From an uncultured Methanosarcinales archaeon (lineage in GTDB: Archaea > Halobacteriota > Methanosarcinia > Methanotrichales > Methanotrichaceae), in contig CAWJKV010000008.1 of NCBI GenBank assembly GCA_963843555.1, positions 1 to 51,710 of the forward strand: a DNA stretch of 51,710 bases, written 5' to 3'. The notes under the pieces are model-generated. The model did no database searches and was not told the DNA's origin. It worked only from the letters and a program-made list of their open reading frames with translations. Numbering within the stretch: position 1 is the stretch's first letter; every line of letters starts with the position of its first letter. Below are positions 2,403 through 27,622 of this stretch, one piece after another. The position numbers and the translations under genes were made by a program.

Positions 2403-2815
2403 AGCATCTATTTCAACCTCGTTTTCCGTGTATGACCTGAGGTTTATCTGATTATCCGGGTGGTAGCCCCTTCATGAGCAAAATTTTTCGCTAAACCGGA
2501 CGTCATAAGCTCCTACCTCTTTATAGCAGGAATGATGAGGGCGGGGAATTCTGCAATGAAACTCAACTGGTGGGCGTCCTCAACTGAGCTTGAAAATCAA
2601 AGCTGATGCTTCCACTGGGGCGATTTATATATTAAGAAGAGCCATTCGTGCCAATTGTGCTGTCCCAAGAGCTTCCGTTAATTATTGTTAATATTATCAA
2701 AGGAAGCAGCGTGATTGGAATTCTCTTTCAGCATTGCTGATGCATCAGGAAAATAAGATCTTACTTAAGTATAGCAAAAATATATGTCTTCTGATGACAT
2801 TTTCAGACTAACATA

Positions 2816-4445
2816 TTGGAGGAAGAAATGACCGCCTTGAAGAGCATGTTTTATGTGGCAACGTTATCATATATTTTGATAGCGATCGTAGATCCTTCGC
2901 AAGGCATTTCTGTGTCTTTCGGAGCGAACGGAGTATCATCGTCTTCGAACTACCACCTTGATACCTCTACGACTTTGAATGATATGGCCACATTGGGGGA
3001 TGGCACAGTAACTCGAACCAGCCAGATGATTGGCTCAGGAGATAATGAATATAGCATTCAGACATCTGCAAAAGGATCAATGGCAGAGAGTTCAGTGAAG
3101 AGTATTGGTGCAGTTCAGTGCCACTACTTCGACTACAGCATCTGATGTTGGTGCCAGTCTCAGCCATGATGTAGCTGGCACTGGCGACCTCAGGGTAGCA
3201 ATATCGGGCTCATCCGGCTCAGCAGCCGCGGACCAGAACGCAGGGGTGGCGAACGGTGTTCTATCGACGTCGCAAAACCTGGCAACAGGCGGCGACATAG
3301 TCTTAGCTAACCAGAATACGCAAATGAAAGGAGATGCTGCTGTAGTGGAATCCCGAGCATTCTCTGAGAAGAATTATATGGCATCTAAGGGAGGCTTTTC
3401 TGGGGGAGACGTAGACCTGAATGCACAGATTGATGTCAGCATCATATGACGGAGCGATTCTAGACGGCAAGGTATCTGTGGCCGGAATCCAATGCATGAG
3501 AGATGGGGATTTCAGGAAGATAGCAAATGCTGAATCTGGCGGAGCAATTGTATCCACAAATGGCCTTGTCCTGGATAAAGATGATAATCTTGTGGACTAC
3601 GGCTTCAAGGTCGTGAATATGAATATCAGGCCAGGGAATAAGCAAAGATCGGGAACCTTGACCGGTCAGAGCGACGTATCCGGGGCTGGATTTGGCTGTG
3701 CGCCGAAATCCATCGGACCATCAGATCGGGAAAAGAGCGTGGCAGGCGGAAAGCCCAATAACTACGTACTCTTCAATGAAATAGAAAATATGTATTATCC
3801 TGAATCCTGGCCCGATGATCTCTATCCCACCTGGAGGATCGATAGACCCATGCAGTTCTATCTGCAGGTGGATGATAACCTCCGCAACACAGGTATGGAT
3901 CCCCGTATTGTGCGCTCACAGGCGGATTTGGCTATGGGAACATGGGATTACTGGACTTCAAAACAGCTCTTCAAGCGCACGATCTCCATCACAAACGACT
4001 TGCTCAATACATGGGATGGAAAGAACGTAATCGGCTTCCTTGGTTATGATGATCCAGGCGTTGCATCAGCATGGACATATTACACAATTTCGAAGGCAGT
4101 GATGTATTCGTAACAGAATCGGACATATCCTTCAGCCAGCGCATATGGCCCGGTTACCTGGGTCCCGACTGGGGCGAATGGACAACCGATTACGCTACAG
4201 CAAACGATCCAAATAACCAGAAGGCTGATTTCCAGACAGTACTGCTGCACGAGCTTGGCCATACAAGCGGCCTGGCAGACCTGTATCTTCTGCCCGGTGA
4301 TGACCCCAGACATGGTGAACGCGAGATAATGAACGGCGGCGATCTATGGGATGATCACATCGCACAGCATAATCTCGGCAAGGGTGACATAACCGGACTC
4401 CGGAAGATCTATGGTGACGCGCCGATCAACTGGGGCTGGGGCTGA
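2816..4445 (+). pseudogene. Secreted metzincin (matrixin-like) zinc metalloprotease split over four ORFs by frameshifts
   Basis: Consecutive overlapping ORFs 2816..3145, 3105..3449, 3421..4113 and 4071..4445. Hydrophobic N-terminal signal, Ser/Thr/Gly-rich middle, and C-terminal HELGHTSGLAD zinc motif with downstream EIM Met-turn. Confidence 0.75.
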
Positions 4446-4522: not shown

Positions 4523-5170
4523 CTAAGCCTTCTTATCCAGAGCCTTGACGACCTCGCCAAAGATGGCCTTGATATCGCCCACACCAAGGACGGTAGAGAC
4601 GAGTCCCCTCTTGTTGTAGTAGTCGATCAAAGGCTGGGTCTGGGCATGATAGGCCTGAAGCCTCTGCTTGACAGTGGCCTCAGTGTCGTCTTCCCTCTGA
4701 TAGAGAGGAGCGCCGCAGGCATCGCACTTTCCTTCTACCTTGGGCTTATTGAACTGCACATGGTAGGTGGTACCGCACTTGCACATCCGGCGGCCAGTGA
4801 CGCGCTTGACGAGCTCCTCATCGGGAACATCAATGTTCAATACCACATCGATCTTCTGGCCCAGAGCGGGCAGGATCTTATCCAGAGCCTCTGCCTGGGG
4901 CATGGTCCTGGGGAAGCCGTCCAGCATCCATCCGGCCTTGACATCGTCCTTGGCCAGGCGGTCCTTGATGATATCAATGAGAAGAGTATCTGGAACGAGC
5001 TTCCCGGCATCCATGAACTTCTTGGCCTCAACTCCCAGAGGAGTGCCGCTGCGAACATTCTCTCTGAGTATATCTCCGGTGGAGACGTGCTTTACATGGT
5101 ATTTGTCGACGATCATCTTGGCCTGTGTGCCCTTACCTGATCCCGGTGGACCTATTAGAATAATATCCAT
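4523..5170 (-). CDS. adk: Adenylate kinase (bacterial-type, zinc LID)
   Basis: GPPGSGKGTQA P-loop, STGDILR, LDGFPRT, and LID CKC...CDAC. Confidence 0.97.
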   Translation of the reverse strand: MDIILIGPPGSGKGTQAKMIVDKYHVKHVSTGDILRENVRSGTPLGVEAKKFMDAGKLVPDTLLIDIIKDRLAKDDVKAGWMLDGFPRTMPQAEALDKILPALGQKIDVVLNIDVPDEELVKRVTGRRMCKCGTTYHVQFNKPKVEGKCDACGAPLYQREDDTEATVKQRLQAYHAQTQPLIDYYNKRGLVSTVLGVGDIKAIFGEVVKALDKKA

Positions 5171-5277
5171 TTCCTTTCCTCCTTTTCCCATAACACGGCA
5201 GCTATTACCGCTTGTGAGCGCTGAATGGATACAATCCCATACTTTAAAAAACCTTTTCTAGCCAGCTAAATAGGCAG

Positions 5278-5907
5278 CTAAATTGCTGCGATGAAAGCAG
5301 CAGCGCTCATGAGGAGGCCCGCAAATATCGGTATGGATAAGTTGTCATCCAGACTTTGATTGCGGATGACTATGGCCACGCAATCGGCGAATGTAGCACC
5401 CACGGCTCCCGCAAAATAGACCGGAAAGGAGAGCTGGGTTATCCCGGAGGCGAAGTAGCCGATCAAAAGGCACGCGGTGAACATGGCGACGACTATGGGC
5501 ATGGGCTTGAGGCTCCACATCTCTTTCCTGCTTCGCACATCGGCTTTCGACAGAACGGAGCCAACGAGACCGCTTACTGCGTCGCCCAGCGAGAGAAGCA
5601 GCATGGCATTCACCGCAATCATTGTCGGAAATAGAAGAACGCATAGAAGGCTGCCCGTGATGTAATAGATGTAGCTGGCTACCTTGTGCTCCTCCTGGAC
5701 CCGCACCTCGGGAAGGCTGACCTTTCCTTTGAGCCTCTGCCATTCCAGCACCAGGGCAACAACCAGAGCCAGGGCGATCATAGTGGCTGTAAAAGTCCGG
5801 CCGAAGACGAGGAGGCCAAATGGGACAGATAGGCCTAAGAGGTGGATGGCCTTTCTTCGGATCTCTTTGACCAGCTTGGTTTGCCACTCCTCATCTATAT
5901 CAATCAC
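5278..5907 (-). CDS. Dolichol/phytol (polyprenol) kinase family membrane protein
   Basis: EIRRKAIH, GDAVSGLVG and DDNLSIP motifs with multiple TM segments. Confidence 0.8.
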   Translation of the reverse strand: MIDIDEEWQTKLVKEIRRKAIHLLGLSVPFGLLVFGRTFTATMIALALVVALVLEWQRLKGKVSLPEVRVQEEHKVASYIYYITGSLLCVLLFPTMIAVNAMLLLSLGDAVSGLVGSVLSKADVRSRKEMWSLKPMPIVVAMFTACLLIGYFASGITQLSFPVYFAGAVGATFADCVAIVIRNQSLDDNLSIPIFAGLLMSAAAFIAAI

Positions 5908-5942
5908 GGACTGTATACCTCATCATTCCTCTTCCTTGCCTC

Positions 5943-7700
5943 TCACTCTTTTTTCACAGGACCAACCAGGTCTCCTGCCTCATGAAACTTTATGATGCCG
6001 TTGAGCAGCGCCTGAAGCTTGTCTGCCACCTGCCACTCTGGAACCTTGATCTGCTGCATGGAGTCCCGATCCCGGATGGTGATTGTCCCCTGCTCCAGGG
6101 TCTCGTAATCCACGGTGACCTCGTAGGGCGTTCCCGCCTCATCGTTTCGCCGGTACCTGCGGCCGATGGACCCGGATGTGTCATAATCGACGCGCATGCC
6201 ACGCTGGCGCAGCTCCCCCAGGATCTTCTGGGCCGGCGCCACCAGCTCAATTCTATCCATCAGCGGCAGAACTGAAACCTCAATGGGGGCTACAGCCGGC
6301 TTGAACCTGAGCACGGCACGGGTTTCACCGTCTACAGCATCCTCATAGTAGGAGTGGTCCAGGACGGTGTAAAGTATCCTGTCGATGCCGAAGGACGGCT
6401 CGATGACATGGGGAACGACCTCAACGCCCCGAACCTCCTCCTCTATGCTCTCGAAGGAGACAAGATTCTTTTCGATCTCGATGGTCTCTCCGTCCACAAC
6501 CACTTTTATCTTGTCGTCCGTAGTGTTGCCCGTTAGCTCCTCGGCGGACATAGACCTGAGCGCCTCGGCCACCGCCCTGGCCCTGGCCTTGAACCTGGGT
6601 CCCAAAGCCTTGAAGTCCGGCTTGACCACAAGCTTCTGGCGTTTCACAGGCTGGTCGTAGTGAACGAAGACCTTGAGATCCACTTTGCTTACAGACGAGT
6701 GGGCCTTGAGGTCATAGTCCGTCCTATCAGCCACGCCCACGATCTCAATCCAGCCCAGACGGTCCAGGAAGACCTCGGCGTCCCAGCAGTCTGCAGCATA
6801 ATGAGCCATCTCATCTGATTTATGCTGGCGGAAACGGAGCTTATCCGGCGCCACGCCCACCGCCAGAAGGAACTGATAGGTTCTGGCCACATAGTAGGCC
6901 AGAGTCTGATGAGCCACGATGCTCCTTTCCACTGCCTCGGCAAAGGTCATCTCCTCTTCTTCCCCTATCTCCTGCGCTTGCTGGGAGTAGAACTTCATCT
7001 TGATGTCCTTGACTTCCGGGAAGCGAGGATGAGTCTTGTCCCGCGGATCTATGAAGATCTCCGCCTCAGCCTGAGTGAATTCCCGGAGCCTGATCACACC
7101 CTGGCGGGGCGAGATCTCATTTCGGAAGGACTTGCCGATCTGCACTGCCGCAAAAGGCAAAGAGTCCCGGAAGTAGCGCAAGAGCCGGGGGAAGTTGATG
7201 AACATGCCCTGCGCCGTCTCCGGCCGGAGATAGCCCGTCATCTTGTTTCCCGGACCGATCATGGTCTTGAACATGAGATTGAACTCGTAGACCTGGGCGA
7301 GCTCGCCTCCGCACTCCGGGCAGCCGATCTCGTTCTCCTGGATGCATTTGTAGATCTCTTCGTTGCTGAGTGCATCAGGGACCTCGACAATATGTTTGAT
7401 GAGGTGGTCTGCCCGGTAGACCTCTTTGCACTCCTTGCAGCTGGTGAGGGGATCAGAGAAGCCGCTCAGATGGCCACTTGCCTGGTAGATTCCCTCCACA
7501 CCGATGGTAGGCGCCTCGATCTCTGCAAAGCCCTCTGCAATAACGAAGTACTGCCGCCAGATGTCTTCAATGCGCCTCTTCAGGGGTGCGCCCAGTGGGC
7601 CGTAATCATAAAATCCCGCTGCTCCGCCGTAGAGCTCAAAGGCAGGCCAAAGGAAGCCGCGCCTGCGGGCAAGTTCGTTTACCTTATCGTTCTTGTCCAT
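5943..7700 (-). CDS. glyS: Glycine--tRNA ligase (archaeal/eukaryotic type)
   Basis: YDYGPLG, LRPETAQG, FRNEISPRQG, MAHYA, EPSFGIDR and SIGRRY motifs. Confidence 0.97.
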   Translation of the reverse strand: MDKNDKVNELARRRGFLWPAFELYGGAAGFYDYGPLGAPLKRRIEDIWRQYFVIAEGFAEIEAPTIGVEGIYQASGHLSGFSDPLTSCKECKEVYRADHLIKHIVEVPDALSNEEIYKCIQENEIGCPECGGELAQVYEFNLMFKTMIGPGNKMTGYLRPETAQGMFINFPRLLRYFRDSLPFAAVQIGKSFRNEISPRQGVIRLREFTQAEAEIFIDPRDKTHPRFPEVKDIKMKFYSQQAQEIGEEEEMTFAEAVERSIVAHQTLAYYVARTYQFLLAVGVAPDKLRFRQHKSDEMAHYAADCWDAEVFLDRLGWIEIVGVADRTDYDLKAHSSVSKVDLKVFVHYDQPVKRQKLVVKPDFKALGPRFKARARAVAEALRSMSAEELTGNTTDDKIKVVVDGETIEIEKNLVSFESIEEEVRGVEVVPHVIEPSFGIDRILYTVLDHSYYEDAVDGETRAVLRFKPAVAPIEVSVLPLMDRIELVAPAQKILGELRQRGMRVDYDTSGSIGRRYRRNDEAGTPYEVTVDYETLEQGTITIRDRDSMQQIKVPEWQVADKLQALLNGIIKFHEAGDLVGPVKKE

Positions 7701-16751: not shown

Positions 16752-17210
16752 ATGCCTCTCATCGACCGCCCCGGTCTGGACGAGTATTTCATGGAGATTG
16801 CAACTGTGGTAGCGAAGCGGTCCACCTGTCTGCGTAACCAGGTGGGAGCGCTCTTCGTGAAGAACAAGAGAATTCTCACCACTGGTTACAACGGCGCGCC
16901 CGCTGGCCTCGACCACTGCGACATCGTGGGCTGCGCCCGTGAGAATGTGGAGAGCGGCACGCGCCACGAGCTCTGCCGGGCAGTGCATGCCGAGCAGAAC
17001 GCCATCATTCAGGCGGCAATGCACGGCATCAGCATCGAGGGGGCAACGCTCTATTGCACTCACCAGCCCTGCATCCTCTGCTCCAAGATGATGATCAACG
17101 CGCGGGTGAAAAAGATCGTCTATCAACAGAGCTACCCCGACCAGACGGCACTTGATTTCTTGCAGCAGGCGGGAATTGAGGTGGTGAGGGCAGAGGAAAG
17201 GGTATTGTGA
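16752..17210 (+). CDS. dCMP deaminase / cytidine-deoxycytidylate deaminase family
   Basis: RSTC...TGYNG, HAEQNA and PCILC zinc motifs. Confidence 0.92.
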
Positions 17211-17926
17211 GGGGAAAGCTCGCAATTGAGGGCCCATTCTCAGTGAATGATCAAAATCATATCGCGCAAATGCTCAAATCGCCAATTGATCACTCCCAGG
17301 CCAGAGCTCAGTTCCTTGAGGCAATTTCCTGACCCTCAACTTCTTCAGGAGCGCAGCCTTCGCCTCCTTTTCTGATACAGCCTATGCAAATCTCATATCC
17401 ACTGGACAATCCATCCCAGCATATCGAAAACGCCACAATGAGGATTTGGTCTTCATTCTATGCCTCATTGATGGATCATATAATAGCTTATAGAGTTTAT
17501 CTTACGGATAATGCGAGATTTGGCGGTTTAACTTGTTGGTCTGCCTGAGCTTGATTCATTTCGCAAATCTGCCCGGCACGAGACCTATCCTTGGTTGCAG
17601 ACTTACGCAATCTTCCTGTGGCCGACTCTTCGATAGTCTGGTCGCTTTGAGGCTTTTCAAAGGCTCCCGTAACCATCTTGGATAACAACTACCGCGGATA
17701 GTACCCAAAGATATAAATATAATGCTGAGAAAGAAGTAATGGAGGTTCCTCGCTGAATCACTGAATCATAACCAGTGGCCGACGACGTTTCAACTGCAGA
17801 ATTTCACAGAGGACGCACATAGACAAACTTAACGATTGGAGAACCATAGTAACCCAAGATTAGCACTGAAAATGCGAAGAGCCCATTAGGGACAGAAGTC
17901 CTAATACAGAAAGGAGAACGATCTCA

Positions 17927-18130
17927 ATGGAAGTAAGAATGCAACCAATGAAAATTGACGAGGAGCAAATTAAGCGTGCTAAAGTGAAGACGGATCCCGC
18001 CTACAGGCAAGTAGCAGAAGGTTTGGCGAGAGAAGTCACGGATATGTTCAATCATCCGGATGCACGACTGAAAATTGAATGTTGCATTGAAGGATGCTGT
18101 GTCAGCTGGTGCTGCATTCAAATATCTTAA
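17927..18130 (+). CDS. Putative RiPP precursor peptide with C-terminal core ECCIEGCCVSWCCIQIS
   Basis: AGGAG RBS at 17912-17916, charged Cys-free leader, six Cys clustered in the last 16 residues, directly upstream of a radical SAM/SPASM gene. Confidence 0.8.
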   Translation: MEVRMQPMKIDEEQIKRAKVKTDPAYRQVAEGLAREVTDMFNHPDARLKIECCIEGCCVSWCCIQIS

Positions 18131-18133
18131 GAC

Positions 18134-18162
18134 GATGAAGATCGTTTCATCTAATATTTTTT
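18134..18162 (+). terminator. Intergenic hairpin plus T-tract between precursor and maturase
   Basis: GATGAA-GATCGT-TTCATC stem-loop followed by TAATATTTTTT. Confidence 0.4.
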
Positions 18163-18178
18163 GGCAGCGGAGGACACT

Positions 18179-19594
18179 ATGTACTATCCTAGTCGTTACA
18201 ATCATCTTGTCGAACTAAAATCAAAGGACAATGGAACTATAAGGATTCTTAAAAACCTGCTCTTTGGAGCGACAGACATCGTTAATGAAGAGGTTTACAG
18301 GACTTTTCTGGAAGGAGAGAAAAATGGAGTGCTATCTGAAGACCAACTCTCTGATGACATTTGGAATCATTACATAGAACGTGGTCTTGTTTGGCTGGAT
18401 CCCGATGCAGAAGAATCGTTGGTCAGAACGGGAGGCAAATCCTACGGTCAGCGTGATGAAATCGCAGCCGGATTGAATGGTGGTTACTATGGCTTCATCA
18501 CTTCACTTCACTGCAACTTAGCCTGCCCGTATTGTTTCCAGAGAGCTAAGGCATCATCCTGTGGATTCCTCTCAAAGAAACAAGTGGATCTTGGCATAGA
18601 TGTCATCAATGAATGCGAAAATAGGTCAATGGAGCTGAATAAAGGGAAAAAGATGTTGCCCAAGATCTCCATCACGGGAGGCGAACCCCTGCTGAGACAC
18701 AAAGCGAATCTAGAAGTTCTTGATTATCTGATGAGCAGGTTATCGGAACTGCACTGGCCCTATAATATAACCACTAACGGCACTTATTTAGAGGAGTTTG
18801 TGGCCGAGCATGATCCACCAAAGAATTGCCGCAATGTACAAGTTACTCTGGACGGCCCTCGCGAAATTCATGATCAGCGTCGTCGCTATCGCAACAACAG
18901 TGATTCCTCATTTGATAAAATAATAAAAGGAGTGGATTCAGCACTATCTGATGGCTGGAAGATCACTCTGCGCGTAAATCTGGATATGAATAACGTAGAG
19001 CATTTGCCGAGGCTTGCCGAATTCGTGCAAGAACATGGTTGGCTTGAGTCCAAAGATTTCTCAGCATATGTGTCTCCGGTGACCGATCATGGGTCTCTTG
19101 GCAATTATGATACACCCAAGGACGAGGCAGATCTGCTCCTGGCGCTATTGCAGGTAGTTGAAAAAACGCCTTATATCCGTGAGGTATTCGACATTAAGCA
19201 TTTCAGGGGCTTCAATTACGTTGAGCGCATATTGTTGCACAATGATCCACGATATCCTGTGATCTATCGTTGTGAAGCAGTATTAGGGATGTACATCTTT
19301 GATCCTAAAGGAGATGTGCACGTCTGTCTGGAAGGGGCAGGAGATTCATCAATGAGAATTGGATCATACGATCCGAAATGGGAATTGAATGATGCTGCTG
19401 CAGCACGTTGGATGGAAAGGAACGTCCTAAAAATGGAGGAATGCGATAAATGCAAGGTTCGATTTATCTGCGCCGGCGGATGTACCATGGATGGTATCAA
19501 TCATGGAAATACTGCACGTTGCATGCCGTTTCTTAGAGAAATGGATATTGCATGGCAATACTATGCAAGAAACAGGCCAGAGTTATTCGCATAA
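18179..19594 (+). CDS. Radical SAM/SPASM domain peptide maturase
   Basis: GGAGGA RBS before ATG 18179, CNLACPYC cluster motif, GGEPLL, TTNG, QVTLDG, SPASM C-x17-C...C-x2-C-x5-C-x3-C-x12-C, and an ~80 aa N-terminal extension where an RRE would lie. Confidence 0.93.
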   Translation: MYYPSRYNHLVELKSKDNGTIRILKNLLFGATDIVNEEVYRTFLEGEKNGVLSEDQLSDDIWNHYIERGLVWLDPDAEESLVRTGGKSYGQRDEIAAGLNGGYYGFITSLHCNLACPYCFQRAKASSCGFLSKKQVDLGIDVINECENRSMELNKGKKMLPKISITGGEPLLRHKANLEVLDYLMSRLSELHWPYNITTNGTYLEEFVAEHDPPKNCRNVQVTLDGPREIHDQRRRYRNNSDSSFDKIIKGVDSALSDGWKITLRVNLDMNNVEHLPRLAEFVQEHGWLESKDFSAYVSPVTDHGSLGNYDTPKDEADLLLALLQVVEKTPYIREVFDIKHFRGFNYVERILLHNDPRYPVIYRCEAVLGMYIFDPKGDVHVCLEGAGDSSMRIGSYDPKWELNDAAAARWMERNVLKMEECDKCKVRFICAGGCTMDGINHGNTARCMPFLREMDIAWQYYARNRPELFA

Positions 19595-19785
19595 TTGACA
19601 GCGTATCTGATCCTGTTAATCCCCTGAAAACACTGTCAATTGCTGCCACGAGAGCAACAATCTCGGCAAACGCATTTGCAATGTTATCTAGAAGATTGTA
19701 TAAAAATGTGCGTGAAAAATGCACACTGCTAGATGATGAGGACCTGGAGATATTGAAGGGAGGCTCTCCAGGATGCCTCTTCGAT

Positions 19786-20157
19786 TTAGGCTTCTAAACG
19801 GATTTGTGAGATGGAATTGTCTGGAATGCGTTCTTTCGTCACATCTGAATAAACTCCGGGCCCGAGAGTGACACTTGGATTTGACACCCCTCCCGAACCA
19901 ACAGGATCCGCAAAGAAAGTCCAATTCCCGGAGATTATTACCATCGATGAGATTTGGTCGTTCCAAAATCTTCCATCCGAGTTAGTGGTCAAATCTGGGT
20001 CGCTCGCGAAATAATGTTTATGCTGGCCCTCCATATTAGTATTCTCAAAAACTATTACTTGCGGAATCGCCTCTTGGGCGACAGAGACCGCAATCATTGC
20101 AATCATCGCAACCGCTGCGATGAGTATGCTTGTGGCTAGTTTTCCTGCAAATTTCAT
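19786..20157 (-). CDS. Secreted beta/gamma-crystallin domain protein
   Basis: Signal peptide, VFENTNMEG Greek-key motif, and Ca-binding-type NDQISS and DNSISQ motifs. Confidence 0.85.
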   Translation of the reverse strand: MKFAGKLATSILIAAVAMIAMIAVSVAQEAIPQVIVFENTNMEGQHKHYFASDPDLTTNSDGRFWNDQISSMVIISGNWTFFADPVGSGGVSNPSVTLGPGVYSDVTKERIPDNSISQIRLEA

Positions 20158-20162
20158 TCTAT

Positions 20163-21588
20163 GTACGTGTTTAGCTCTCGCTTAAATTTCTAAAATTTCC
20201 ATCAAAATTCATTTAGACCAGAAAAATTAAGTAATATAATCGCAATATTCTTTTATTGGGAGTATGGACGAAGGAGAAATTAACAGGCAGCTTCGTGAGC
20301 TTGTTGAACAATTGAAGCATGAGAATGAGCTGCTTAAGGCAAAAGTTATCGAACTTGAAGCTCGACTAGCTCAATATGAGAATGCACATACTCCACCAAG
20401 TCTAAGACGTGGCCGCAATCGCAAAAAGGATCGGGAAAAAGACATCAAGGGAAAACCTGGTCAAAAAAGCGGGCACAAAGGCGTAACAAGGACTTATGTG
20501 GCTCCGGATAGGCAAGTGGAAGTCACAATGGATCACTGTCCCGATTGCGGGACAAAGCTTGGTTCTCCTTTTCGAATTGATTCGAAGATCATTGAGGAAA
20601 TTCCTGAACCTCAGCCGATCATCGTTACTGAATACAGAATCTCGCATTACAGATGTGCTTGCTGCCGGAAAGAAGTTGCTGCAAAAGATCCAGGCTGCCC
20701 ACATGAAGGCAAATTCGGAAACAACGTAATTGCGCAGGCGACACTGCTAAAATATGATGGTAGAATGCCTCACCGAAAGATCCACGACGCAATGATGAGA
20801 CTGTTCGGTCTGAAAATAAGTCCTGCTACGATACTCGATTTAACCCGTCGCGCTGCTGATGCGGTTCAATCGGAATACGATGCGATTCTAAAGAAGATTC
20901 GAGGCGCTCCGATCCTTTACGTGGATGAAACGTCAATCCATGTCCAGGGAGAAAGACATTGGATCTGGACCTTTTCCACACCATCTGAGTCTTTTTTCGT
21001 GATTCGGAAGAGCCGAGGCATGAAGGTTCTGACGGAAGTCTTGACGCGGAGATTCAAGGGAATAATCGTGTGCGACGGTTGGAAACCTTATGCCAGGTTC
21101 ACAAATCGCATTCAGCGATGTTGGGCACATCTGCTTCGAGAGTCAAAAGAGATTGCTGAGAAGTTCGAGGAAGCGATTCCACTACATAATGCACTCAAAG
21201 AGCTTTACGAGATACTAACCGAGGCTCTGGAAAACGATCCTCCGCCAAAAGTCAGAAAGAGACTATGGCAATTGGCGCGAGAAGCGCTTCGGCACTGGAT
21301 CATGAAAGAGTACTCTATCGAGAAAGTCCGGAAATTCATCGGGAAAATCAACAACGGGTTTGACTACTGGTTCACATTTATCATTAATCCAGGTGTAGAG
21401 CCGACCAATAATCGAGCCGAGAGAGCGTTGCGACCACACGTGGTTTTGAGAAAGATCTTGGGCACACTGCGCAATGACAAAGGAACTTCGATTCATGAGC
21501 GAATCATGACGACACTGGCAACATGGGGACAGAAAGGGTTGAATAGTCTCCAAATGCTAACCGCGAAGCTGGCCAGCTAAACACGTAC
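20163..21588 (+). mobile_element. IS66-family element (single-ORF, ISBst12-like)
   Basis: 14-bp TIRs GTACGTGTTTAGCT / AGCTAAACACGTAC and 8-bp target duplication CATTCTAT at 20155-20162 and 21589-21596. Confidence 0.95.
20264..21580 (+). CDS. IS66 family transposase
   Basis: Coiled coil, PPS..G.HKG, zinc finger CPDCG/CACC, DET, DGW, QRCWAHLLR and TNNRAERALR. Confidence 0.95.
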   Translation: MDEGEINRQLRELVEQLKHENELLKAKVIELEARLAQYENAHTPPSLRRGRNRKKDREKDIKGKPGQKSGHKGVTRTYVAPDRQVEVTMDHCPDCGTKLGSPFRIDSKIIEEIPEPQPIIVTEYRISHYRCACCRKEVAAKDPGCPHEGKFGNNVIAQATLLKYDGRMPHRKIHDAMMRLFGLKISPATILDLTRRAADAVQSEYDAILKKIRGAPILYVDETSIHVQGERHWIWTFSTPSESFFVIRKSRGMKVLTEVLTRRFKGIIVCDGWKPYARFTNRIQRCWAHLLRESKEIAEKFEEAIPLHNALKELYEILTEALENDPPPKVRKRLWQLAREALRHWIMKEYSIEKVRKFIGKINNGFDYWFTFIINPGVEPTNNRAERALRPHVVLRKILGTLRNDKGTSIHERIMTTLATWGQKGLNSLQMLTAKLAS

Positions 21589-21868
21589 CATTCTATCACC
21601 TAATTAAATCATTGGAATTCCATGAAATTAATACTTGTCGGAGAAGCATCTTAATTGACATGGAAAGTTGCGAACTATGATTAACAGCATAGTACCTTAA
21701 TCTGTATCCATCGATCTCCATGATCATGGAGGAAGGTCAGCGGCAACAAAACATATCGCGATGGGATAGCTTCTTGTAGTCTCCCTTACCATGCCTGCTA
21801 ACTATTCGACAGGGCCATCGAGATTTGTTCGCAGGATGCAACCATATGGATAAACAAGACAATGCTCC

Positions 21869-23055
21869 TAATGCGTTCGGTCGTATTAATTTTGCAGATT
21901 AAGATAATGCCTTTGGAGTTTTACTCTGGCGTTATCTTTATTGAACCTCCATCTTACTGTTGCGCCGATTGCATTCCGCTTTCGTTCCCAGCGCTAACCT
22001 CATCGGCAAGCTTCTTCACATCGGCAATCCTGCGATCCAAGCATTGCTTTGAAAGTGCAGAGAGTTCTATCTCCGCCATATTGAGCCAACTTCCCTTCTT
22101 GGGAGTATAGTGATACTCAAACCTCTTTGCGAGTTGGAAAGCATCATCTGGAGATAGGGCTTCATAAAATGAACCAGCCGTATGTGTGTTTAGGTTATCC
22201 TGGACCAAAATAATGGTTTCAGCTTCTGGATAATGGTGAGCGAGCAATTTCATAAAATCTGCATAATCGACTTTCGTCCGGCGTTCCTTAACACGAATAT
22301 CCTCTTACCTGCGCGAGGCTCAAAGGCCAAGAATATACAGCATGTGCCATTTCGGATATATTCATAATGCTCTTTCTTTGGGCTTCCTGGTTTCATGGGA
22401 ATCGGAATAATCGCATCGCCGATCAACTGGCATGGCCTCTCGTCGAAACAGATAACCGGGCGTTTCGGATCATAGGGTTGCTCATAAAGATCCAAGACAT
22501 CCTCCATGTGCCAGATGAAATCACTCGTCATCTTTCCTATGCACCAGCGAGTCTTTAGCCAAGGTTTAATTTCATTTTTTTCAATAGCCTTTGCACACTC
22601 ATATGGGAGATGGAATCTACGACCTCCATCTCAACAAGCTTATCTGCCAGAAGTCTGAACGTCCATTTTGATCTGCCATCAGGCGGCTCAGAACATGCAA
22701 GAAGGGTCAATTGTGCTTCGATCTTTCCATCTATTTTTGGAGGGGCACCACTGCGGGCTTTTTCATGCAGTGCAAAATCCAGACCACCCTCGCAATATCT
22801 CGTTCTTATTCGACTCACTGTCGACTTGCTCACCTTTAATGCTTCTGCGATCATTTCATCATCGCGCCCTTCATCCGCTAAGAGAAGTATCCTGGCCCGA
22901 GTCAGACTTCTTGCAGAAGACTTGCCTTTACGAAGATATTGTTTCAGCTCTTCTCGTTCTTCTTCTTTCAAGCTGACAATGTGCAATTTCTTCCTTGCCA
23001 TGATCTTTATTATATGGCAAGTTCTAAAATTTAAAACTTTTGTTACAGAGCACTA
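21869..23055 (-). mobile_element. IS630-family element with additional frameshifts
   Basis: TA-bounded ends (TAGTGCTCTGTAAC... at right, weaker TAATGCGTTCGG... at left) enclosing HTH and DDE transposase segments. Confidence 0.8.
21886..23001 (-). pseudogene. IS630 transposase: orfA plus -1 frameshifted orfB, with two extra breaks
   Basis: orfA HTH at 22555..23001. A7 slippery run near 22576-22582 leads in the -1 frame to KNEIKPWLK...MEDVLDLY, CFDE, QDNLNTH and SWLNMAEIE. Further frame breaks near 22290 and 21990. Confidence 0.85.
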
Positions 23056-23450
23056 GTGAGGATAATGCAGCTTTTCGCCAAAGCCAGGGAGCTGAGGTAC
23101 ATGGGCTAATCCCGTCTCTTAGCAGTATGCATAACTTGTTATCCTGCCCTTCTTTTTTCGGATTTAGTCCAATCTTGGGTGGTTGTACAGGCATTACGAA
23201 TAACCAGCAAAATTGGACTGCATCTACAGTGTGTAGCTCTCCTCCAGGATCTCGATGGTCCATCATAATTGCAGCCTGGCCTCTGCTCAAGGAACCTCGG
23301 CCAGCTTGTCTTGGCATGCCGCTTTTTGCACAAATCCATGGCGCTCGGGCCCGAGCACCAAAGCCGGATTTTGGTGAGAGCCAACTCTTGGCATTAATTA
23401 TTACCCCAGGCATAGAAACGATTTAGTAATGCGAGAGATCTGTTAAAATC

Positions 23451-24734
23451 ATGTTCGGACCTAAATCTCATCTCACCACTCGCAGCAATCACCTCTTTAT
23501 CGAAGACGTGGACTGTTTTCTGCTGGCACAGCAGCACGGCACGCCCCTTTATGTCACATCCGAAAAAAGACTTCGAGAGAACATTCGCGCCTACCACAGG
23601 GCTTTTCCCGATGCAGACAAGTACTTCGCAGTAAAGGCCAATGGCAATCTCACAATTTTGCGTATCGCCGCCCAGGAGGGCATGGGAGCAGACGTCTTCT
23701 CTGCCGGCGAGCTCTCTGTGGTTCGCATGGCCGGCATCCCCAGGGATAAGATCCTTTTTAACGGCAACTCCAAGAGCGAGAAGGATCATGAGATGGCGCT
23801 ACAAGCGGGGGTGCGATTGTCCGTGGACTCTCGTGAAGAACTGGAGCATCTGGCAAGAACTGCCCAGGCTCTTGGATTGGAGGCCGAGATCCTCTTCCGG
23901 GTCAACCCTGATGTCTCTGCCAAAACTCATCCCAAGATCGCCACTGGCCTTCGGTCTTCCAAGTTCGGCATTCCGGCTGAAGAGGTTGCTGAGACTTACC
24001 AGAGGGCCATGAGCCTGATAGGCATAAAGCCGGTGGGCCTGCACTGCCACATCGGCTCACAGATCCTGGATACATCTTCTTTTGCAGAAGCGGCAGATAA
24101 GATGATGGACATTGCCGGTGCAGTGGTGGAGAAGGGCGGCGAGGTCAAGAGGATAGACCTGGGTGGCGGCCTGGGCATCCAGTATCACCCCGACACTCCC
24201 TCTCCCGAGCCCGCAGACCTGGCTAAAGCCATCCTGCCCATCTTCCTGAATCGAAGCCGGGATTTGGGCATCGCTCCCCAGCTTATCCTGGAGCCGGGCC
24301 GGAGCATTGTGGCGGATACTACCATCATGCTGACGGGCGTAAACGAGGTCAAGAGGGCTCACGTCAACTTCGCTGCCATGGACGCCGGCTTCAATGTCCT
24401 GGCCCGTCCCATGCTTTACGACTCCTATCATCATGTCGTAGTGGCCAACCGGGCAGGTGCGCCTTTGGAGGAGACCTACACCGTTGTCGGGCCGATCTGC
24501 GAGACAGGTGATGTGCTGGCCCGCGACCGCCAGCTGCCGCGTCTGGAAAGGGGAGACGTGCTGGCCTTCCTGGATACCGGAGCATATGGCTTTTCCATGG
24601 CCTCGCAGTATAACGGTCAGCCCCGGCCGGCGGAATTGCTGATCTCGGGAGACGAGGCTGAGGTCACCCGCCGGGCAGAGGACTCGAGCGCTCTCCTGGC
24701 CGGTCAGAGGATTTTGCCCCGGCTTATGTGGTAG
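23451..24734 (+). CDS. lysA: Diaminopimelate decarboxylase
   Basis: YFAVKAN (PLP lysine), HCHIGSQ, DLGGG, EPGRS, GPICETGD and GAYG. Confidence 0.96.
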   Translation: MFGPKSHLTTRSNHLFIEDVDCFLLAQQHGTPLYVTSEKRLRENIRAYHRAFPDADKYFAVKANGNLTILRIAAQEGMGADVFSAGELSVVRMAGIPRDKILFNGNSKSEKDHEMALQAGVRLSVDSREELEHLARTAQALGLEAEILFRVNPDVSAKTHPKIATGLRSSKFGIPAEEVAETYQRAMSLIGIKPVGLHCHIGSQILDTSSFAEAADKMMDIAGAVVEKGGEVKRIDLGGGLGIQYHPDTPSPEPADLAKAILPIFLNRSRDLGIAPQLILEPGRSIVADTTIMLTGVNEVKRAHVNFAAMDAGFNVLARPMLYDSYHHVVVANRAGAPLEETYTVVGPICETGDVLARDRQLPRLERGDVLAFLDTGAYGFSMASQYNGQPRPAELLISGDEAEVTRRAEDSSALLAGQRILPRLMW

Positions 24735-24740
24735 GCTGGT

Positions 24741-25370
24741 ATGAAGACCGAACTGGAAAGCGCCATCGAGGCCGTGCAGAGCATGGTACTTCCCTTGCGG
24801 CAGGGCGAGTTCGCTGAATGCGCTGGCAAGATCTCAGTTTATGTGCAGTCCGTGGCAAAGAGCCGCGATTCATCTCGCACTGCTCTGCAGGCTTTGGAGC
24901 AAAGAATGGCCAAAGATTCCGAGGGGTACAGTAAGGCCAAAGAGACAATCAAGCTAAGCTTTCAGAAATCCCTGCAAAACTCGCTGCGTTTTGCCCGCCT
25001 CAACCTGGATCAACTACGGTTGCAGGCGCTGCAGGCGCTGGTCTGCAGACCCAGGAATCCCACCAAGACAGACGAGCAGAAGAAATCAATCGCCCTGCAG
25101 AAGACCTTCGACCGGCTGACGAGTCCCCAAGAGGCCATGCTGGAGCACTATCTCTCCAGCTCTGATCCACTCAATAAGTATCTAGTAGCCGGACCGTGGG
25201 GCCACCAGTACCTGCAGAGGAGAAAGATCGATCTGGAGGAGTACGATCGACGGCTCTGCGAGATGCTGGCCTGCCAGGATACATTGGCGGGTAGAGTCGT
25301 GCTTAGCTACACAGGGATTTGCCGGGCTTTCGATGTGGTGGAGGAGCAGGCGATGGAGGCTTTGGATTAA
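24741..25370 (+). CDS. Hypothetical helical protein, probably co-transcribed with lysA
   Basis: 209 aa ORF starting 6 nt after the lysA stop. Confidence 0.7.
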   Translation: MKTELESAIEAVQSMVLPLRQGEFAECAGKISVYVQSVAKSRDSSRTALQALEQRMAKDSEGYSKAKETIKLSFQKSLQNSLRFARLNLDQLRLQALQALVCRPRNPTKTDEQKKSIALQKTFDRLTSPQEAMLEHYLSSSDPLNKYLVAGPWGHQYLQRRKIDLEEYDRRLCEMLACQDTLAGRVVLSYTGICRAFDVVEEQAMEALD

Positions 25371-25448
25371 ATTATATCAATTCATGCCTCTGGTGATTCT
25401 TTACTTATCAAAAAAGGATTCTTGCCAAAGCCCGAGGGCACTGGCAAC

Positions 25449-26695
25449 TAGTTTATCAATTCTGAATTAAAGCCACAATACTTTTATTCCTGCAGCTCAT
25501 ATGTGTATTATGCCATTCGAGAGTACACGACCAAAGTTGAGCTTCAATTCTGAGGAGATCGCCATTTTAGTTGAAGTAAGCAGATCTAGAACCCATCCAC
25601 AAAGAGAAGTGGAGCGCGCAAAAATATTGCTTGCCAATATCGAAGGGTCAAATGATTCCCGCATCGCAAGAGATTTACATACTAATCGTTATAAAGTAAT
25701 TCGAACTATAAAAAAAGCTCTTGCCTATGGTTTAGAGGATGCTCTTAGAGATTTACCAAGATCAGGGCGTCCCAAAGAGATTTCATCGGAAGCACGCGCA
25801 TGGATCATATCTATTGCATGCATGAAACCAAAGGACCTCGGGTATCCTCATGAGCTATGGACCCAAAGATTATTGGTGGAATATATTAGAGCACATTGCC
25901 ATGAGAAAGGATTTGGAGAAGTCTCAAATATAACACAAGGGACCGTATCTAAAATTCTAAATGCAAGCAAAATTAAACCACATAAAATTATATCTTATAT
26001 AGAAAAGAAAGATCCAGATTTTGATTCCAAGAGTGCGGTAGTTCTGCATACATATAAGCAAGTAGAAATGATGAAGAAGAAAGTTGGATCTGGTGAAGAA
26101 GTCCTCTCTGCAATAGTATCATATGATGAAAAGCCTGGTATTAAGGCACTTGGAACAATAGCTCCAGACCTACCACCAAAGCCTGGAGAATATCCATCTA
26201 TTGCTCGTGATTACGAATATATTCGATATGGGACGATTTCTTTGCTTGCGGGTATCGATCTAATAACTGGTAATATACATCATAAGGTATTTGATAATCA
26301 TCGGAGTAAGGAATTTGTAGAATTTTTAAAATATCTAAATGAGGTATACCCGTCTTATATCAAGATTACTATCATTCTTGATAATTTGAAAGTCCATACA
26401 TCAAAAGAAACGAGAAAATATTTGATGTCTGTGCCAAATAGATTTCACTTTGTTTTCACGCCAAAACATGCATCTTGGCTGAATATCATTGAGACTCTAT
26501 TCAGCAAAATGACTCGAAGCATGTTGCGCGGAATCCGAGTGGGGTCAAAAAACGAGCTGATAGATAGGATCGACGAGTATTTTAATTATCTAAATAAAAC
26601 ACCAACGATCTTTACCTGGAAATATAAAATGGATGAGATGCCGGGAGATATATGACTCTATCTTATTGTTGTATCAATTCAGAATCGATATACTA
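25449..26695 (+). mobile_element. IS630-family element (single ORF)
   Basis: Imperfect ~30-bp TIRs TAGTTTATCAATTCTGAATTAAAGCCACAATA vs reverse-complement TAGTATATCGATTCTGAATTGATACAACAATA, with TA target duplication. Confidence 0.92.
25501..26655 (+). CDS. IS630 family transposase
   Basis: RSGRP HTH, SYDEKPG, ILDNLKVH and SWLNIIE DDE triad, intact 384 aa. Confidence 0.95.
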   Translation: MCIMPFESTRPKLSFNSEEIAILVEVSRSRTHPQREVERAKILLANIEGSNDSRIARDLHTNRYKVIRTIKKALAYGLEDALRDLPRSGRPKEISSEARAWIISIACMKPKDLGYPHELWTQRLLVEYIRAHCHEKGFGEVSNITQGTVSKILNASKIKPHKIISYIEKKDPDFDSKSAVVLHTYKQVEMMKKKVGSGEEVLSAIVSYDEKPGIKALGTIAPDLPPKPGEYPSIARDYEYIRYGTISLLAGIDLITGNIHHKVFDNHRSKEFVEFLKYLNEVYPSYIKITIILDNLKVHTSKETRKYLMSVPNRFHFVFTPKHASWLNIIETLFSKMTRSMLRGIRVGSKNELIDRIDEYFNYLNKTPTIFTWKYKMDEMPGDI

Positions 26696-27265
26696 GCTTA
26701 TCGCAACTGAATTGGATTTCAATACGATATCGCATCTGCGGTCATTCAGGGTTATGTAAACGCTCTTTGGAGGCACCTCTCCTTTGGGAACTGCGAACCA
26801 GAGGCCATCGAGGTCAGAAGGGCTGGATAATGCGCAAAAACCGTAGATGTAGCCTCCATCAAATGAATTGTAGATGTTCACCCAGGTCCGGGCGGAATTG
26901 GTGTTAAGCCCACAGGGCGGCAGGTCCGGGGCAGGCTTGAAGAGGCTGGCGGGATAGTCGTCTCTATTGGCAACAGAGAGCTTATACCGGGTATATGTAA
27001 CGCCGCCCACGGTGTAATCCTCCTTGCCGGTGTAGGTCAGCCTGGGCGCGGGCAGGCATTTGAAGCAGTAGCTGTATGAGGCGACTGGTCGCTCCAGGAC
27101 GGCGGAGGCAATCGGCACCTTCGAGCTGACTTGCGGGGTGTATGATGCCATAGTTTCGTCTGAAGTAGGCCCATAGTCATACTGAGCAATTGTCGTTCCC
27201 ATGAAGATCATGGTCATGGAAATGATCACAAGGAGGGTTCGAATATTCCTGTCGTTCGAATTCAT
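26693..27265 (-). CDS. Secreted hypothetical protein with Cys-containing beta domain
   Basis: Signal peptide and GGTGA RBS. Its TAG stop coincides with the IS630 TA target site. Confidence 0.75.
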   Translation of the reverse strand: MNSNDRNIRTLLVIISMTMIFMGTTIAQYDYGPTSDETMASYTPQVSSKVPIASAVLERPVASYSYCFKCLPAPRLTYTGKEDYTVGGVTYTRYKLSVANRDDYPASLFKPAPDLPPCGLNTNSARTWVNIYNSFDGGYIYGFCALSSPSDLDGLWFAVPKGEVPPKSVYITLNDRRCDIVLKSNSVAIS

Positions 27266-27622
27266 TTATCTCACCTGACTACTCATATGTTTAAATATTT
27301 TAGTTTCAAATAAGCTCTTATCATATAAACAATTTATGGTATCTTCAGATGAATTGTAGAGTCAGATGAATCGAGTTACATCGCCGAAGAAGTCCAGCGG
27401 ATTGATTGTGCCGTAAGAGAGATAGTCGAGACATAAGATCGAGCGCACTACAGATGATCGCAGTTGCTGATACGAATCGGATGAAGCATTCTTACGTCAT
27501 AGCTCAAATCAGATTAGATAATTTCTGTAAATGTGGTAATATCGGTGAGATTAGCTGGTTTTGGACGCTTCGGCAAAAGATATTATAATCCCTAAGTTAG
27601 ATTGATATAGTCATTGGAGGTG

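Follow-up and report, generated by a model that had tools for sequence, protein, structure and literature searches.

A putatively peptide-modifying two-gene cassette on a low-GC island of an uncultured Methanosarcinales archaeon

Introduction

Contig CAWJKV010000008.1 of an uncultured Methanosarcinales archaeon (assembly GCA_963843555.1, family Methanotrichaceae) carries a short open reading frame (ORF) ending in three vicinal Cys pairs, directly ahead of a gene for a radical S-adenosylmethionine (SAM) enzyme with a SPASM domain. The stretch of 51,710 nucleotides (nt) that was analysed is called the window here. The arrangement of the two genes raises the question of whether the peptide is the substrate of the enzyme, which modification it would receive, what the product might be for, and how the two genes came to lie in this genome. 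The preliminary description of the locus had proposed a new archaeal system for a peptide made on the ribosome and modified after its translation (RiPP), in which the enzyme, called the maturase below, would install several thioether bridges or a Trp-based crosslink. Few Cys-crosslinking radical SAM/SPASM enzymes have been studied in archaea, and the one tested example that we found, CrpC, dates from September 2026. We consider it probable that the two genes of the window form a self-contained peptide-modification cassette, horizontally acquired and working by the thioether mechanism proposed below.

Results

The precursor gene and its conservation

The small ORF has its own AGGAG ribosome-binding site (RBS), a charged, Cys-free leader and a core of three pentads with a Cys pair each (CC-I-E-G, CC-V-S-W and CC-I-Q-I-S), just as the preliminary description had read them (Table 1). 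Within the window, translated in six frames, CC-x3-CC-x3-CC has a single occurrence, and 200 shuffles gave none. A search of a 5.8-billion-protein set returned 11 peptide clusters, including the one from the window itself, and a profile search of 1.84 billion representatives returned 30 matches, 29 of which are peptides of 62-102 residues carrying the motif. The thirtieth (P0160, 421 residues) is an unrelated repetitive protein and was removed from the alignment.

All six Cys of the core are invariant in the 38 aligned members. V59 and S60 are each kept in 37 members and G56 in 36; position 55 is Glu in 28 and Gln in 10, position 60 is Ser apart from Gly in one member, position 61 is Trp in 31, Phe in four and His, Tyr and Val in one each, and position 65 is Gln in 25, Arg in 11 and Lys in two. 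The core stays rigid across methanogens, cyanobacteria, actinobacteria, Chloroflexi and a sulfur-oxidising symbiont. The leader is far more variable than the core, except for the segment K-T-D-P-A-[YF]-R-x-x-x-x-G-L; in a 17-sequence alignment, G32 of the leader never varies, and conservation reaches at least 90% at D23 and P24.

At the level of DNA, the 16 core codons of 10 loci (45 pairs) hold 301 synonymous as against 133 nonsynonymous differences, and all synonymous codons are used at each invariant core residue. A GGAG-type site precedes a plausible precursor start in each of the nine homologous loci inspected. Together, the synonymous turnover, the conserved core and the RBSs indicate, as far as a sequence record can, that the ORF is a translated gene under strong purifying selection at the protein level.

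Some further features of this gene may be recorded here. For the conserved Ser60 (core codon 9, window positions 18104-18106), all 10 loci use AGC or AGT and none uses TCN. The region 17211-17926 ahead of the ORF is gene-free apart from a TATA-like A/T-rich element, GATATAAATATAA, at 17707-17727, which lies about 200 nt 5' of the precursor start and is a candidate archaeal promoter. A scan of 17100-20300 against Rfam at E ≤ 0.1 gave no match, and a search for RNA sequencing runs covering 17500-19700 listed none.

Recurrence of the gene pair

Scanning metagenomes with the peptide profile gave nine loci, eight of which carry the core motif; the ninth, L094, is a 13-residue match without the motif and was not counted. 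In seven of the eight motif-bearing loci, a maturase gene follows 51-125 nt downstream on the same strand. The opposite direction was covered by a genome scan with the maturase alignment, in which the only close ortholog among the matches listed, L006 from a metagenome-assembled genome (MAG) of Methanosarcina barkeri, has a CC-x3-CC-x3-CC peptide ORF 46 nt upstream, where the preliminary description had suggested looking for one. Moreover, the longest source contigs of the peptide and maturase clusters agree in size (53059, 2134, 65587 and 2955), which is indirect support for the pairing. The recurrence from both sides, in seven of eight metagenome loci and at L006, bears out the earlier claim of a dedicated pair of peptide and enzyme, and we are confident that the two are a real substrate-enzyme pair.

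Four loci have flanks that could be compared, namely the window, L006, L088 and L092. No third gene is common to them, and we therefore take the unit to consist of two genes. Likewise, no transporter, immunity gene or protease is common to these four loci.

The maturase

The 48-nt spacing, the CxxxCxxC motif, the seven-Cys SPASM pattern and an N-terminal extension, all named in the preliminary description, were found in the maturase gene (Table 1), the extension placing about 100 residues before the radical SAM core. The TTG at 18161 chosen by the ORF finder was ruled out as its start, the aligned homologues all beginning at the ATG at 18179. The Pfam model Radical_SAM covers residues 108-283 (E 4.8e-14), and Fer4_12 is the only other Pfam domain. 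The SPASM domain is assigned from the canonical spacing of its seven Cys and from the way in which the maturase profile aligns with CteB and anSME in their SPASM regions, profile positions 362-443 falling on CteB 345-425; the assignment, putative in this respect, has one gap in that the Pfam SPASM model PF13186 gave no match to the maturase at E ≤ 1.

An AlphaFold2 model built from 24 sequences (pLDDT 88.3, pTM 0.87) predicts strands followed by three helices in residues 1-98. The top Foldseek match of this model is CteB (5wgg, E 5e-17), followed by others including TigE, SuiB and anSME; the matches to CteB, TigE and SuiB, all of them peptide maturases built of RRE, radical SAM and SPASM domains, cover nearly the full length of the enzyme. 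CteB is also the best solved relative by sequence, with E 2.7e-15 for the single sequence and 1.1e-24 for the profile, and the profile aligns with it from position 21 (CteB residue 15) onward. The maturase thus belongs, by prediction as regards its RRE, to the class of RRE-fused radical SAM/SPASM peptide maturases of CteB type, and the fold and profile matches agree with the architecture first suggested for it.

Predicted docking of the leader

When maturase and peptide were co-folded from separate alignments, the runs scored 0.81, 0.81 and 0.78, the best of three controls reaching 0.02. Among solved complexes, 116 of 157 attain the mark applied, as do 2 of 215 mismatched pairs. Agreement between the runs extends to at least 57% of contacts, with a partner pLDDT of at least 55. 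The lowest expected error was found where about residues 23-34 of the peptide, the leader motif DPAYR..GL, lie on maturase residues 29-36, a strand of the RRE. Binding of the leader as a strand is a known mode of substrate recognition by RRE domains. In the same models, core residues 50, 54 and 57 come near maturase residues 351-366 and 384, beside the auxiliary-cluster ligands C365 and C383. The placement of the conserved leader motif on the N-terminal domain, which had been put forward as a check, supports binding of the leader by the RRE of the maturase in the predicted complex.

Family placement

The maturase scores below the cut-off of every curated NCBIfam model. The closest is CefB 'Cys-every-fifth' (NF038107; 138.9 bits vs a cut-off of 600, E 2e-40, residues 5-443), followed by Clo7bot (113.6 vs 600), TIGR04463, that is, CrpC (107.4 vs 525), PapB (NF047865; 99.5 vs 340), the SCIFF maturase (TIGR03974; 78.2 vs 425) and QhpD (TIGR03906; 73.7 vs 453). 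The two sulfatase-maturase models gave 58 bits vs 349 (TIGR03942) and 50 vs 441; an identity as anaerobic sulfatase maturase was rejected on these scores, far below the cut-offs, and on the absence of a sulfatase among the neighbours. Nine further maturases, 30-66% identical to that of the window, miss all cut-offs as well (CefB 97-126 bits), and when CefB itself was sought among distant loci, the best, L029, reached 315 bits of 600 and none the cut-off.

The 38 precursors gave no match to NCBIfam or Pfam at E ≤ 0.1 except single noise matches. Membership in SCIFF, the subtilosin type or mycofactocin was rejected, no such model matching, and the core, which the preliminary description had not recognised as any of these, stands outside these families. 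The suggested novelty is also supported: among about 8.4 million full texts, none contains any of four strings of the core motif, and no curated model was matched. None of eight motif fragments occurs in the table of 3,421 predicted sactipeptides and ranthipeptides of Precord et al., the supplements to the CrpC paper (PMC13692751) lack the core motif, topic searches of the literature returned no description of the cassette, and the ESM Atlas returned generic radical SAM clusters only. The maturase may nevertheless be among the 14,550 accessions of the list of Precord et al., or generic tools might flag the locus as 'ranthipeptide'.

We also computed a quick maximum-likelihood tree of 63 rows (32 from P0001-P0062, every fourth of P0064-P0120, and 16 locus translations). 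A branch with SH-aLRT 100 sets apart the members that have at least 49% identity, a cohesion that is partly built in, the groups having been set by identity to the query. This group is sister to a 39% subgroup, with support of 100 for the subgroup and 90 for the join; P0058, P0060 and P0061 come next outward, and then a Thiorhodococcus protein. Within the main group, the window enzyme clusters with that of Methanosarcina among others, and those from Chloroflexi, Ilumatobacter, Ca. Thiodiazotropha and Roseofilum are nearby.

Distribution and genomic island

With an ortholog defined by E ≤ 1e-60, the maturase had none in 104 further genomes from the host's family, none in 400 further genomes sampled across the phylum, and none in 401 genomes around a cyanobacterial genome, the last sample including no positive control. 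A tblastn search of a plasmid collection also gave no ortholog, the best identity being 29.9%. Among the best 120 maturase clusters listed, 48 have at least 49% identity. The sources named for homologues include Methanosarcina, Chloroflexi, Ilumatobacter, Ca. Thiodiazotropha and Roseofilum, and on these sources the notion of a specifically archaeal system was not borne out. The family appears to be rare, with a patchy distribution that is most simply read as horizontal acquisition.

The cassette lies on a low-GC island between genes assigned by Pfam to a dCMP deaminase and a LysA-type diaminopimelate decarboxylase (Table 1). In the same-genus locus L113, these two genes are about 25 nt apart, which corresponds to an empty site. 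Among the 11 same-genus loci, L107 has 900 nt between the two genes, and in the other nine the decarboxylase gene is not within 1.5 kb. By sequence comparison, the deaminase junction is a variable spot for which an empty site exists. An internal stop codon was seen in four of the deaminase matches in the same-genus loci L104-L114. The island is flanked on the same contig by genes syntenic with same-genus relatives. The preliminary description had suspected an AT-richer, acquired locus, and the GC contrast of 0.43-0.47 (from about 17.0 to 23.5 kb) vs 0.57-0.59 in the flanking housekeeping genes, the transposases, the empty site and the absence of an ortholog from all 104 relatives support this.

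A copy of the IS66-family transposase of the island, 82% identical, lies on contig C9 of the host genome. A transfer RNA (tRNA) scan of 12-30 kb found none and therefore no tRNA integration site, and the repeats in 16800-24000, a direct pair of 19 nt and an inverted pair of 16 nt, are not placed like island ends. A second low-GC stretch at 25000-27500 (GC down to 0.37) carries, at 25501-26655, a transposase that is intact and has the domains DDE_3 and HTH_32; because of it, mobile elements appear to have inserted into the window at least twice. Completeness of the host bin is 82%, and its contamination 3%. The host is a methanogen or methane-metabolising archaeon, since its McrA scores 958 bits vs a curated cut-off of 768.

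Table 1. Positions of the cassette, its parts and the surrounding island in the window
Feature	Position	Strand	Remarks
Precursor RBS, AGGAG (putative)	17912-17916	+	10 nt ahead of the ATG; read from the sequence
Precursor ORF	17927-18130	+	67 residues; start ATG at 17927
Precursor leader, residues 1-51	17927-18079	+	Charged, Cys-free; holds K-T-D-P-A-Y-R-x-x-x-x-G-L, residues 21-33
Precursor core, residues 52-67	18080-18127 (with stop codon to 18130)	+	CCIEGCCVSWCCIQIS; three C-C-hydrophobic-polar-x pentads
Spacer between precursor and maturase	18131-18178	+	48 nt
Maturase RBS, GGAGG (putative)	18169-18173	+	Within the 48-nt spacer; read from the sequence
Radical SAM/SPASM maturase gene	18179-19594	+	471 residues plus stop
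RRE-like leader-binding domain (predicted), maturase residues 1-100	18179-18478	+	Four strands, then three helices in the model
CxxxCxxC, C112-x3-C116-x2-C119	18512-18535	+	Invariant in 24/24 aligned homologues
SPASM region, C365 C383 C422 C425 C431 C435 C448	19256-19528	+	Seven Cys invariant in 24/24 homologues
Low-GC island with the cassette	17211-23450		About 6.2 kb; GC 0.43-0.47, flanks 0.57-0.59
Beta/gamma-crystallin protein	19786-20157	-	123 residues; Pfam Crystall E 9.5e-7; hydrophobic N-terminus; convergent with the maturase gene
IS66-family transposase	20264-21580	+	Pfam DDE_Tnp_IS66 E 3.9e-43
Transposase helix-turn-helix fragment	22555-23001	-	HTH_32, HTH_29, HTH_23; far end of the island

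Neighbouring genes and related loci

The neighbours of the cassette differ from locus to locus. In the window, they are the beta/gamma-crystallin protein and the IS66 transposase; the crystallin gene has no counterpart in L006, L088 or L092 and lies outside the conserved cassette. L006 has another radical SAM protein and, by eye, two putative lipid-synthesis ORFs, L088 a flavin monooxygenase and a desaturase, and L092 a TldD/PmbA peptidase pair plus a second radical SAM gene. In L092 (flanks at 1-1424 and 4601-7335), a locus of the 39%-identity subgroup, the TldD/PmbA pair stands on one side of the cassette, and the second radical SAM gene on the other side is accompanied by a 91-residue ORF with a Cys-containing tail. 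L092 may represent a more extended cluster that includes a leader peptidase and is confined to that branch.

In the Methanosarcina barkeri MAG (G497), the precursor occurs on two contigs, C211 and C348 (loci L095 and L096), with identical scores, which reflects either a true duplication or a contig duplicated in assembly. Small ORFs with a CC pair in their tails also adjoin distant relatives of the maturase (25-31% identity), at 7854-7964 in L015, where the ORF ends directly at the enzyme start, at 7620-7724 in L034 and at 6355-6693 in L007; they may be precursors of sister families. The host genome itself has a second RRE-type radical SAM/SPASM gene (L002, contig C10, 1204-2700), 31% identical to the maturase and followed by a 353-residue protein (2737-3798) that has domains of the ricin-B lectin and beta/gamma-crystallin types. 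Beside this paralogue, no small ORF rich in Cys was seen. The presence of beta/gamma-crystallin genes beside both the cassette and the paralogue may be a coincidence or a link.

Discussion

Proposed mechanism

In the mechanism that we propose, the leader motif at about residues 21-34 (KTDPAYR..GL) of the 67-residue precursor would dock as an extra strand on the RRE of the maturase, and the docked leader would feed the C-terminal core into the active site. There, the enzyme would cleave SAM, abstract a hydrogen from an acceptor residue and join a Cys sulfur to that carbon. One round per pentad would give three, possibly more, small thioether rings in line. The likeliest links would connect the leading Cys of each pair with the third residue after it (E55, S60 and Q65), like the C-X-X-Q/D sites of CrpA, and the second Cys of each pair would stay free or be linked in turn.

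A Cys thioether is our best guess for the bond because the best-scoring families with tested chemistry form Cys thioethers. CrpC (TIGR04463) from Methanococcus voltae, reconstituted in 2026, introduces thioethers into the Cys-rich CrpA, and the authors read them as ranthionines; the links lie at short C-x-x-acceptor sites, and C-X-X-Q/D motifs are described (PMC13692751). Sactionine links come apart on CID, and ranthionine links stay intact (PMC13692751). Similarly, Cys thioethers are the chemistry given for PapB, CteB and QhpD in PMC13692751 and by Precord et al. (PMC10288494). A Cys-containing precursor adjoining its maturase, the arrangement by which sactipeptides and ranthipeptides are classed, is what the window contains. 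We mapped the six 'catalytic site proximity' positions of Precord et al. (PMC10288494) through the CteB profile alignment; the maturase residues (F120, T166, T198, T223, L384 and E385) share two identities and two similar residues with CteB (F, F, T, S, H and Q) vs one and one with the sactisynthase StsB (Y, T, I, S, K and L), which puts the maturase slightly nearer to CteB. By analogy with the best-scoring families, we lean towards Cys thioether chemistry by the maturase, albeit with some reserve.

Several points weigh against this mechanism or against the pairing on which it builds. The kinship argument for the chemistry spans only 25-30% identity, and the acceptor pattern is mixed, with Glu or Gln at position 55, Ser (Gly once) at 60, Gln, Arg or Lys at 65 and no Asp. 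The comparison of proximity residues has two reference enzymes and is not decisive. The co-fold pass may partly reflect a likeness to the solved leader complexes 5v1t and 9gm3. As to the pairing, the metagenome loci were retrieved through the peptide and test only the direction from peptide to enzyme, the direction from maturase to peptide being tested by one locus, L006. In L093, the eighth motif-bearing metagenome locus, the contig ends 213 nt past the peptide, and the start of a maturase is not visible there. Finally, the four flanked loci share neither a protease nor an exporter.

The role of the product

We favour a conserved role over that of a bacteriocin on two grounds: conservation is far stronger in the core than in the leader, and the cassette has no linked exporter, protease or immunity gene. 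Antibiotic RiPPs usually have a conserved leader and a variable core; PqqA, MftA and SCIFF show the conserved-core pattern, as does the cassette. We regard the chances as evenly balanced that the product has a conserved job other than that of a bacteriocin, be it in thiol, metal or redox chemistry or directed at one fixed target. Crp genes are reported to be induced on pyrite (PMC13692751), a hint of iron-sulfur links for the Crp family that has no tie to the cassette.

Alternatively, the product could be a classical secreted antimicrobial, a sactipeptide or ranthipeptide acting as bacteriocin or archaeocin and processed and exported by unlinked host proteins. The cassette has the architecture of sactipeptide and ranthipeptide clusters, its patchy horizontal spread and mobile-element context fit an accessory competition trait, and the TldD/PmbA peptidase pair adjoins it in L092. 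However, even where the maturases are only 39% identical, the core varies less than the leader, and a transporter, an immunity gene or a protease is not common to the four flanked loci. We consider an antimicrobial role unlikely, yet deserving of attention.

Other chemistries and other readings

The same pair of peptide and enzyme could also carry out a different reaction, such as a C-C or C-O link to the aromatic residue at position 61, a joining of Cys within a pair or between neighbouring pairs (by sulfur to a Cys carbon or through thiomorpholine-type rings of adjacent residues), oxidation or epimerisation. SPASM enzymes of the same fold differ in what they do; SuiB and TigE take ranks 4-5 among the fold matches, and DynA and YhhB appear in the NCBIfam list. 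Furthermore, the vicinal Cys pairs are the most conserved feature of the peptide (38 of 38 members) in a core that occurs in no searched dataset, CC ORFs also lie beside the distant relatives L015, L034 and L007, and we found no published chemistry for CefB, the best-scoring family. On the other side, the highest-scoring characterised families are thioether formers, and no alternative reaction is directly favoured. The Trp-based crosslink raised in the preliminary description is weakened because position 61 is not Trp in seven of the 38 members, one of which has the non-aromatic Val. Overall, a chemistry other than thioether formation strikes us as rather improbable.

A more far-reaching version, which we offer as a long shot, would make the vicinal pairs themselves the recognition unit of an undescribed SPASM reaction, for instance one that joins the two residues of each pair, or one pair to the next, in a rigid ladder of sulfur-containing rings. 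The product would be a peptide derived from six Cys that acts intracellularly as a metal-binding or redox-cofactor-like molecule. If true, the intracellular cofactor role would explain the near-frozen 16-residue core in a cassette that crosses archaea and at least four bacterial phyla, and the relatives at L015, L034 and L007 would belong to a wider, unrecognised class of 'CC-peptides'.

It is very unlikely that the small protein is a metal or iron-sulfur partner or chaperone of the enzyme instead of its substrate. Six invariant Cys could bind metal, but the leader-core layout fits a precursor, the leader is predicted to dock on the RRE with the core near the SPASM and active-site region, no other candidate substrate is conserved nearby, and the sulfatase-maturase models score far below their cut-offs (58 and 50 bits). 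That the ORF is not a gene, or stands next to the maturase by chance, is suggested by its small size alone and is barely credible against the synonymous turnover, the RBSs in nine of nine loci and the repeated adjacency.

With only two genes, the cassette is directly testable by co-expression. A new chemistry on the Cys pairs would extend the types of reaction assigned to this well-studied class of enzymes; if the links are ordinary thioethers, the cassette would be one more ranthipeptide or sactipeptide family, with an unusual spread over two domains of life.

Comparison with known systems

Set beside the systems described so far, the architecture of the cassette looks familiar and its precursor family and motif appear undescribed; the strict Cys pairing is explained by none of the known systems. 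CefA/CefB, which the preliminary description did not consider, comes first by score, CefB being the best-scoring curated model, and its name implies a five-residue Cys period, as found here. However, the score is 138.9 vs 600 bits, and the likeness to CefA is taken from the model name. The terms 'Cys-every-fifth' and 'NF038107' are absent from the about 8.4 million full texts, and the hits listed for 'CefB' are unrelated acronyms.

CrpA/CrpC of Methanococcus voltae is a likeness from a methanogen, in which an enzyme of RRE, radical SAM and SPASM domains acts on an adjacently encoded product that is rich in Cys and whose N-terminus resembles a leader. CrpA has C-X-X-Q/D sites, with which C-x-x-E, C-x-x-S and C-x-x-Q in the pentads of the cassette, counted from the first Cys, may be compared. 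CrpA differs in having ten 17-residue repeats, vs 67 residues with three vicinal Cys pairs here, and the Crp cluster has a third gene, CrpB, whereas the cassette has only two genes; the study took only proteins of at least 100 residues (PMC13692751).

SCIFF, with its peptide CteA and maturase CteB (5WGG/5WHY), offers the best solved relative of the maturase, with the same domain order and SPASM Cys pattern. SCIFF, too, consists of two genes and lacks an exporter, and its core of six Cys is highly conserved. However, identity with CteB in the fold matches is about 19%, and the cassette is sporadic and cross-domain, whereas SCIFF is lineage-wide.

PapB and freyrasin provide a repeated short Cys motif that becomes a row of small thioether rings, the topology proposed for the cassette. 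The C-x3-D spacing is the motif of PapA, and Asp is the usual acceptor of PapB; in contrast, the core of the cassette has neither an Asp acceptor nor this spacing, and its Cys come in pairs.

QhpD/QhpC differs in its setting, no amine dehydrogenase genes lying near the cassette. The likeness is in the enzyme and in the fate of its product: QhpD is an RRE SPASM enzyme that forms three thioethers from Cys to Asp or Glu in a small polypeptide, which is kept intracellular as an enzyme subunit (PMC13692751). QhpD/QhpC thus sets a precedent for a role other than that of an antibiotic.

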